A DNA stretch of 64,000 nucleotides, taken from contig QKDR01000125.1 in assembly GCA_003252515.1 (NCBI GenBank), positions 30,272 through 94,271 on the forward strand, written 5' to 3'. The translations under genes and the position numbers were made by a program. The notes beneath the pieces were generated by a model. It ran no database searches. It was not told where the DNA came from and was given only the letters and a program-made list of their open reading frames with translations. This DNA comes from Candidatus Delongbacteria bacterium (GTDB taxonomy: Bacteria > UBA4055). This document shows, piece by piece, positions 5,201 through 6,260 of this stretch; positions within the stretch are counted from its first letter, which is position 1; each line of letters starts with the position of its first letter.

Positions 5201-6260
5201 CTGCCCCTTATATCTGAGTTGGGAGAATAGTGGTGACTGGCCTGCAAACTGGCCCGGCTCTGACAGTTGGGATTGGGAAATCCATGCCGGAGCCGCTTGG
5301 ACACCTGCTATGGGAGCTTACTCACTCGGTGCTAAATACAGTACTGAAGGCAATACTGGTGAGGTCTCAATAAATAAAACAATATCCATTGACAGTGAGT
5401 GGGAAAGCGTTCTTGAATTCGCAATCGGAGCAGAAAAAGAAGTTGGAACATTGAATTTTTATCCATTACTTGCGGATTACAGTATAGCCACGTCAAAAGA
5501 CGGTGCTAATTGGACAATAGAAAAGACAGCCACGCTTTCTGATTATACTTCGCTTTCATGGTCTTTGGAAGCCGGTCATTGTTTTGTAAAATTCTTTAAA
5601 CCGCTCGGGAATATATCAAGCCTTGGTGTAAAGTTCATTAAAGACGGAATTGTTACGACACCGCCTGATTCGCAGGTTACTCTTTTTGATGAAGTGAAAT
5701 CTGTTTTAACAAAAACACCTTTAAAAGCAGGTCCGACTGATCCAAGCGCTCAATATGCAGACGGAAATGTAAGTGTCAGCTGGAGCGGTCCGGCTAAAGA
5801 CAGTAAAGCACTAGACCAATATTATGTTTACAGGAACGGGATCAAGATCGGAGAGACAACAGCAGAATCTTATGTTGATTCAACAGTTTATGCCAACACT
5901 TTCTATAATTACGCTATAACGGCGCATTATGACGACGGCTCGACATATCCCGAATCTCCTATGAATGAGTGCTCTGTGAGCATATACACGGGATTATACT
6001 CGCCGTCAGGTCTTGTTATAGTTAATGAGAGTCCCAATATCAGGTTAACATGGTCACCAGTCTCCGGAGCATCAGAATACAAGGTATATTCTTCGGATGA
6101 TCCTTATGGTACTTTTGCTGAGGATACAACAGGCACATTTGGCGGTGAAGAGTGGACAGCCCCGATAAGCACAAGCAGGCTGTTTTATTATGTCATTGCC
6201 GTGAATGAGAGCATGAAAGAGAAGAAAATTATAAAGACTTCAGGCAGTCAAGTCAAGTAA
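2222..6260 (+). CDS. Giant secreted C10 (streptopain-like) cysteine peptidase family protein. It is interrupted by a frameshift inside an A11 tract at 2832-2842. The fragments are 2222..2860 (signal peptide plus pro-region) and 2772..6260 (catalytic domain, large middle region, FN3 domains).
   Basis: The N-terminal fragment has a signal peptide (MKNSLALLMFLLLALSGFA). The downstream ORF lacks one but carries the C10 catalytic-Cys motif QSGTAAVGCTPLAIAQLTKFYNYP and a His motif NNHTWIIDGY. Both frames read ...EKKK... across the A-tract. FN3-like repeats and the shared terminal domain are at the C-terminus. Confidence 0.6.

Follow-up and report, generated by a model that had tools for sequence, protein, structure and literature searches.

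Why would one small domain stand at the very end of several secreted proteins whose catalytic or structural cores differ? The question is raised by a 64,000-nucleotide stretch of contig QKDR01000125.1 from a Candidatus Delongbacteria bacterium (the window, numbered from its first letter), in which four open reading frames (ORFs) of the plus strand, at 2772-6260, 9618-11165, 15256-17598 and 48509-52270, close with a common domain of about 70 amino acids (aa). A preliminary description drawn from the letters of the window had taken this domain, here called the tail, for a candidate sorting or anchoring tag specific to the lineage. Sequence comparison supports that proposal through the strictly C-terminal position of the tail, the absence of any match to the C-terminal domain (CTD) of type IX secretion systems (T9SS), the swap of modules between orthologues and the signal peptides of the host proteins. 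The tail is always terminal, sits on exported proteins, excludes a type A CTD from the same protein and is interchangeable with other modules between orthologues. It is probably a surface-sorting or docking tag. We class it with the domains that sort or anchor proteins by their C-terminus, a kind already known, in a new form apparently made from a truncated fibronectin type III (FN3) domain.

Four terminal domains and their relatives

A hidden Markov model (HMM) built from the four tails and run against the six-frame translation of the window matched these four at 105-127 bits and nothing else, the runner-up scoring 8 bits. An HMM built from 56 tails outside the window recovered the same four and no others (54.6-86.6 bits, E values from 5e-16 to 5e-26; next best 4.4 bits). 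Between the end of the domain and the stop codon remain 17, 0, 5 and 17 residues for tails 1 to 4, and the original claim of four proteins sharing a domain close to the stop codon thus holds. Pairwise identity among the four is 26-46%. Two of them are 63-80% identical to counterparts in a Delongbacteria metagenome-assembled genome (MAG), and tail 1 is 80% identical to the tail of its Delongbacteria UBA12480 orthologue. The low mutual identity indicates that the window copies are old paralogous modules, not recent duplications; the tails of the window appear old and seemingly inherited along with their host genes.

To place the domain more widely, we searched a genome of each GTDB species for a motif from inside the domain, [SE]Y[KDS]VYS[SA][DN][DE]P, without any positional constraint. 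The scan returned 56 loci (32 from Cloacimonadota, 12 from Candidatus Delongbacteria, 3 from UBP11, 8 unnamed and 1 labelled 'Bacteroidia'), and the domain lay at the extreme C-terminus in all 55 that could be assessed. Subfamily membership was set at 50 bits or more. Among all ORFs in 610 kb of related loci, 90 carry a tail at this threshold, and in 90/90 it is C-terminal, with at most 44 residues beyond the domain; about 30 of these ORFs sit in the flanks and were not selected by the motif. In a collection of 5.8 billion proteins the domain was C-terminal in 117/117 among the matches listed, 88 of which end exactly at the domain end. The word-indexed homologue search gave only proteins of up to 201 aa, probably through index bias, and long hosts were judged from genomic loci. 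The lone internal copy (L024:6443-7552, aa 83-156 of 370, with 214 residues after it) is divergent and scores 31.7 bits. A loose profile does match thousands of internal tandem FN3 repeats, each at no more than 45 bits per domain. Within the subfamily, internal placement is therefore nowhere near as frequent as terminal placement, as the preliminary description had expected of a sorting signal.

On present sequence data the subfamily occurs in MAGs of Candidatus Delongbacteria and Cloacimonadota, barring one contig with a 'Bacteroidia' label. This 335-kb 'uncultured Bacteroidia' contig (L004, CAZYNH010000001.1) carries two FN3-tail genes, and a near-identical tail type is found in another MAG (L029). 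The bin may bear a wrong label, or else the tail reaches beyond Delongbacteria and Cloacimonadota.

An FN3 domain that ends after strand F

Isolated tails matched none of the Pfam and NCBIfam models even at E<=10, PF00041 included, and the tail is nowhere described in the curated models and literature searched; one member bears the JGI (Joint Genome Institute) label 'fibronectin type 3 domain-containing protein'. Comparing the profile of 56 tails with the PDB gave significant matches to 3mpc_A, a Clostridium thermocellum 'Fn3-like protein' (E=1.3e-7), and to the Fn3 domain of CtXyl5A (5g56, E=4.2e-6). AlphaFold2, run with a 128-sequence alignment, returned a confident model (predicted local distance difference test score, pLDDT, 92.2) with six strands, A, B, C, C', E and F. 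The standard FN3 fold is a seven-strand sandwich (A-B-E / C'-C-F-G), and strand G is missing from the model of the tail. As judged from profile comparison and predicted structure, the tail is a genuine FN3 domain without strand G; the kinship proposed at first sight stands, and the wording 'FN3-like' gives way to a firmer and more specific one.

An exhaustive search of 1.8 billion representatives with the four-tail profile yielded 16,160 matches at E<=1e-3, which places the tail in a generic bacterial class of FN3 domains. This search was swamped by tandem-FN3 giants and gave no statistics on C-terminal position: the top 150 were all multi-repeat, giant proteins with 5-43 tandem FN3 repeats at up to 45 bits per repeat. 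Generic repeats and tails have the W..VSGA.SY.VY and YYYKV.A.N core in common, and the repeats go on into ..GES.. and a G strand. Specific to the tails are SS-D-D-P-Y in the C-C' loop and K-K-F-Y-Y in the E-F loop and strand F. The stop codon follows exactly four residues after FYYV in 120 of 182 non-redundant tails; the others, about a third, carry extensions of 2-49 aa that are net basic and mostly end in K or R. The extension of tail 4, SNKESSRTITIKKTAKK, could build a segment resembling strand G. Some Cloacimonadota proteins carry after the FN3 tail a strongly basic extension of about 38 aa, STETIRSKDSDSQDAYxPxRKSRRYDSxKFINRKRK (tails of L028, L035, L020, L034 and L046; P0161, P0185, P0191, P0192 and P0218), which by its sequence is a second recurrent C-terminal element.

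An ending this abrupt could in principle come from genes called too short, from recoded stop codons or from faulty assembly, and a homopolymer frameshift is indeed present in one host gene, though far from its tail. The same ending recurs, however, across many independent assemblies, in over 180 non-redundant proteins. Each of the three stop codons occurs (TAA 43, TGA 21, TAG 18), and the in-frame sequence downstream holds further stops and no conserved continuation, from which we conclude that the truncation is real. Recoding is ruled out by the same stop usage and unconserved downstream frame, and an artefact of any of these kinds is hardly conceivable and effectively excluded.

Membership in a common FN3 class raises a simpler explanation, namely that the tail has no part in sorting and is an ordinary spacer or binding module, C-terminal only because it spread as a 3' cassette in two related phyla. 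Its sequence and fold are indeed those of the tandem-array class, and its nearest solved relatives are the two C. thermocellum FN3 modules named above, one of them from the multi-modular cellulosomal CtXyl5A. Left unexplained are the fixed stop after strand F and the lack of internal or tandem copies that reach the 50-bit threshold of the subfamily. The window copies are far less alike among themselves than two of them are to their counterparts in another genome, which points instead to long vertical maintenance.

Host proteins and exchange at a common junction

A signal-peptide-like N-terminus is present in 31 of 34 complete host ORFs, and all four window hosts begin with a signal peptide, so the proposed restriction of tails to signal-peptide proteins is largely borne out. 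The 42 hosts analysed with Pfam match 64 families, including Peptidase_C25 (6), PAD_porph (4), PKD, Beta_helix, S8, MAM, C10, CotH and Kelch, and the diversity of catalytic and structural cores noted in the window thus extends to the wider set. NCBIfam adds choice-of-anchor D (4), choice-of-anchor J (3) and homologues of M36 peptidases, and the hosts thus count homologues of classic T9SS cargo among them. The choice-of-anchor names and the M36 model names (myxosortase-dependent, T9SS-dependent) point to alternative C-terminal sorting signals; that such domains and M36 homologues depend elsewhere on sorting systems supports, by homology, a sorting role for the tail.

Cloacimonadota also possess an abundant family of about 155 aa that consists of a signal peptide, three SxNYxL repeats, PGYYLG and an FN3 tail (L057:7890-8351, L057:10001-10468 and L060:5643-6110; also in L033, L037-L039, L045, L047 and L051). 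On contigs L057-L061 its genes lie within about 2 kb downstream of, and mostly directly adjacent to, a gene for a large Peptidase_S74 protein (fibre intramolecular chaperone). In the AlphaFold2 model of one member (P0166) the repeat region falls below a pLDDT of 50, and the model gives no sign that the SxNYxL repeats supply the missing strand in cis.

The second window host provides a direct comparison with other sorting modules. For its PF28492 Beta_helix_4 core, over 6,800 homologues are known. Of the 120 that match best, 69 end in a type A CTD, 4 in an FN3 tail and 2 in a dockerin, and several have no tail. The four with FN3 tails, the window protein included, are from Delongbacteria; carriers of the type A CTD with a source name are labelled Rhodothermus, Rhodocaloribacter, Rhodohalobacter, Ignavibacteriaceae, Calditrichaeota, Latescibacterota or Bacteroidetes. 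All C-terminal modules attach just after the same ..LWTDGWTYLSQFGYT motif. This swap at one junction implies that the FN3 tail fills a slot that evolution gives to surface-localisation modules. It also goes unexplained if the tail is a mere spacer, as does the presence of the tail on 155-aa proteins with little else and on hosts with unrelated substrates, and we regard the spacer explanation as unlikely.

The genomic setting of the Beta_helix_4 gene is conserved as well. It forms a pair with a gene for a TonB-dependent receptor in the window (6611-11165) and at L064:6977-11533 and L063:2911-7575, and the upstream receptor gene is kept whether its neighbour ends in an FN3 tail or in a dockerin, which suggests that the Beta_helix_4 protein is a surface-exposed accessory of the transporter. 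At L063:6001-8451 the dockerin-ended Beta_helix_4 protein (P0377) is directly followed by a protein of 280 aa that carries a T9SS CTD. No cohesin was detected by Pfam in the latter; the two are a possible pair of enzyme plus anchor.

Dockerins in this slot bring up another explanation, in which the G-less FN3 would bind a surface-anchored partner and tether enzymes and scaffoldins without itself giving a secretion signal. Contact would be made by the conserved distal tip, or by a partner strand filling the open edge of strand F, and the outer membrane would be crossed by another route or with the help of a CTD-bearing partner. Besides the dockerin followed by a small T9SS-CTD protein, a group of three adjoining cohesin genes (L057:1-5429) agrees with such docking. 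Two of their products end in a T9SS CTD (FlgD_ig/Por_Secre_tail), and the third (L057:3501-5426) is scaffoldin-like, with three cohesin stretches, Big_2 and the FN3 tail at its end; by analogy, the trio looks like a set of primary and anchoring scaffoldins. Cloacimonadota have been reported to possess cohesin-dockerin complexes that include C25 and S8 enzymes (PMC8542988), the AlphaFold2 models leave the strand-F edge exposed, with no strand G, and a split FN3 made of two chains exists (HCF-1, 4go6, among the structure matches). On the other side, the analysis turned up no partner, nor any gene family that regularly adjoins the tails. The cis extensions on about a third of tails, some possibly a strand G, argue against an obligatory open edge, no cis strand complementation is seen in the model of the 155-aa family, and translocation across the outer membrane is left unexplained. 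Docking is thus possible but doubtful. Its stricter form, an intentionally incomplete FN3 whose strand-F edge would take up a donor strand of an outer-membrane anchor or T9SS-associated carrier, strikes us as decidedly improbable, more so than a mere spacer.

The genes concerned in the window are collected in the table. Host gene 1, whose peptidase identity was correctly read at the outset (Peptidase_C10), extends further upstream than first described: frame analysis of the DNA sequence reveals one gene split where an A11 run at about 2831-2841 shifts the frame, with the signal peptide in the upstream piece. Possible origins of the frameshift are an error in sequencing, decay into a pseudogene and a phase switch prone to slippage. 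For host 3, the product starting from the ATG at 15292 has an exact database record. Host 4 had been taken for a second C10 peptidase, an identity that was not confirmed. Its N-terminal region (48509-49900) contains a Cys motif (..WCYGCTATA..) and a His motif (..GHSMLGYGY..) of papain-like type, finds no match among the peptidase families of Pfam and NCBIfam, and aligns with the first C10 peptidase by BLASTP at E=0.2 around the Cys/His motifs only; from these motifs it may be an unclassified cysteine peptidase. A canonical T9SS CTD had also been noted in the window, and we recovered it on ORF 45939-48425 (TIGR04183, 35.6 bits, above the cutoff of 23), which means that both tail types are present in one genome. 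At the window edge, ORF 309-761, which encodes a SocA_Panacea domain (PF13274), shares part of its length with a second ORF of 150 aa (window 309-1197); the ORFs in this interval are likely a toxin-antitoxin pair.

Table. Tails, host genes and neighbouring genes in the window.
Feature	Position	Strand	Description	HMM scores (bits)
Host gene 1	2222..6260	+	Signal peptide and pro-region 2222-2860; Peptidase_C10 core through tail 2772-6260; Pfam Peptidase_C10 2.6e-31	
FN3 tail 1, on C10 peptidase	5988..6260	+	Core 5988-6206; 17-aa basic extension (ESMKEKKIIKTSGSQVK) to 6257, then stop	126.8 / 90.2 / 86.6
TonB-dependent receptor	6611..9592	+	NCBIfam TIGR01782 1.6e-59; conserved upstream partner of Beta_helix_4 gene	
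Host gene 2	9618..11165	+	Signal peptide, PF28492 Beta_helix_4 core, FN3 tail; 26 bp downstream of TonB-dependent receptor gene	
FN3 tail 2, on Beta_helix_4 protein	10950..11165	+	Core 10950-11162; protein ends ..KKFYYVKANN straight after strand F, then stop	
Host gene 3	15292..17598	+	Signal peptide, Propeptide_C25, Peptidase_C25, C25 Ig-like domain, FN3 tail; Pfam 1.1e-45	
FN3 tail 3, on C25 peptidase	17365..17598	+	Core 17365-17580; short end ..STSKVK, then stop	105.3 / 78.4 / 68.9
Secreted neighbour	45939..48425	+	Choice-of-anchor J domains (NF038128 4.4e-23); T9SS type A CTD at aa 750-825, ~48186-48413	
Host gene 4	48509..52270	+	Signal peptide, papain-like Cys/His region, internal generic FN3, Reelin-subrepeat-B-like domain, FN3 tail	
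FN3 tail 4	52004..52270	+	Core 52004-52216; 17-aa basic extension	123.8 / 69.4 / 54.6

A candidate sorting tag among known systems

We tentatively favor, with a probability of roughly 0.4, the reading that the tail is a lineage-specific C-terminal surface-sorting module used in place of the T9SS type A CTD on Sec-exported proteins. After Sec export and periplasmic folding, the six-stranded FN3 domain would be recognized as a folded cargo tag, with the SS-D-D-P-Y and K-K-F-Y-Y features at the pole farthest from the cargo. Recognition would fall to the type IX pathway or to a separate adaptor that serves this class of tag, and the cargo would then cross the outer membrane to be kept on, or released from, the cell surface. 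Type B CTDs, which have their own PorP/SprF-like partners, offer a parallel to such an adaptor. Both the role in secretion or anchoring and the involvement of type IX are what we infer from comparison. The cargo-tag reading is favored because T9SS CTD classes A, B and C have no sequence motifs in common and C-terminal extensions of the CTD are tolerated (PMC11285876), a tolerance that fits the variable basic extensions of the tails.

Several results weigh against a sorting tag that acts through type IX. The models TIGR04183, TIGR04131, PF18962, PF13585 and PF13860 gave no match to the tails even at E<=10, and hhalign comparison of the 56-tail profile with the 69 type A CTDs of Beta_helix_4 orthologues gave a probability of 0.1-0.2%. 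A structure search with the tail model found ordinary FN3 domains as the closest folds and no CTD in the top 60. The type A CTD is a compact 3+4 sandwich (beta1-beta7) whose last strand, beta7, contains a conserved Lys and is important for secretion (PMC11285876), and unlike these characterized CTDs most tails are without a last strand. No T9SS machinery gene was found in these genomes, though no search aimed at such genes was made, and the presence of a T9SS was deduced from type A CTD proteins only. The dockerin in the Beta_helix_4 slot indicates that this slot can hold a docking module and not a secretion signal. Finally, clustering of neighboring genes across about 60 loci found no recurrent processing enzyme, porin or adaptor adjoining the tails, so the co-distributed enzyme or porin suggested at the outset was not found next to the tails; the partners found were host-specific only, namely the TonB receptor with Beta_helix_4 and the Peptidase_S74 giants with the 155-aa family.

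The same comparisons decide whether the tail might be a divergent but ordinary T9SS type A or B CTD overlooked by the models. Similar size, a beta-sandwich fold and C-terminal position speak for it, and many tails are K- or R-ended. With no CTD model match at E<=10 and hhalign at 0.1-0.2% against 69 CTDs, the tail does not behave as an ordinary CTD variant, a possibility that the preliminary description had considered. It matches FN3 significantly instead (E=1.3e-7) and is without the NxPNPFNP motif and the last beta-strand, and full host proteins gave no T9SS CTD model match either. A divergent CTD is thus contradicted at the sequence level, very improbable and effectively excluded. In the loci sampled, 22 ORFs carry a type A CTD, none of them with an FN3 tail as well; the ratio of 90 FN3-tail ORFs to these 22 is biased, as the loci were chosen around tails.

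Other known signals were also considered. For the type B CTD (TIGR04131 / PF13585 CHU_C) there was no HMM match and no recurrent adjoining gene family except the host-specific partners. Short tripartite signals of the LPXTG, PEP-CTERM and GlyGly-CTERM types, in which a signature motif precedes a hydrophobic helix and a basic end, gave no NCBIfam model match; the tails are folded beta domains, and their extensions are hydrophilic and K/R-rich and contain no hydrophobic segment. The dockerin family (PF00404) gave no Pfam match on the tails, and the tail model is all-beta. Overall, we place the cargo tag first, docking to a surface-anchored partner second and a spacer without sorting role third.

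Cloacimonadota and Delongbacteria are uncultured phyla, and a dedicated HMM of the tail would improve annotation of their secretomes. Should the tail prove to be a T9SS signal of a new class, or a tag for docking through fold complementation, it would broaden the view of how bacteria of the Fibrobacteres-Chlorobi-Bacteroidetes (FCB) group decorate their surface, and it would offer a compact display tag of 65 aa. Should complementation be true, dozens of unrelated exoproteins per genome would be exported and/or tethered in this manner, by a sorting or docking principle new to FCB bacteria and parallel to the T9SS CTD and cohesin-dockerin systems in the same cells. One orthologous protein that ends without a tail, in an FN3 tail, in a dockerin or in a T9SS CTD is a natural experiment on the exchange of sorting modules.

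Compared with its closest structural relatives, the Fn3 domains of 3mpc and 5g56, which are seven-stranded, internal or tandem and possess the ..N.aGES.. FG loop and strand G, the tail ends after strand F, has the SSDDPY and KKF motifs and is never internal. A sandwich missing its last strand, with an open edge fillable by another chain, is also known from chaperone-usher pilins and the split FN3 of HCF-1 (4go6); unlike in donor-strand systems, some tails have a possible strand G of their own, and the likeness is one of analogy. Type I dockerins, including those of Cloacimonadota (PMC8542988), are likewise small C-terminal modules on diverse secreted enzymes and occupy the same Beta_helix_4 slot. 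They are calcium-binding helical domains with a cohesin partner and work by tethering to a surface-anchored partner, whereas the tail is an all-beta FN3, even on a cohesin protein. From the T9SS type A CTD (TIGR04183 / PF18962 Por_Secre_tail) the tail differs in being a six-strand FN3 without the terminal strand, N-x-PNPFNP or K-x-x-x-K, and in lacking similarity of sequence or profile. Yet the two are alike in their size of about 70-90 aa, their beta-sandwich fold, their obligatory C-terminal position and their occurrence in the FCB group on Sec-signal proteins of diverse function, down to the same host families (C25, C10, PPAD, S8, M36 and choice-of-anchor) and an identical Beta_helix_4 junction.
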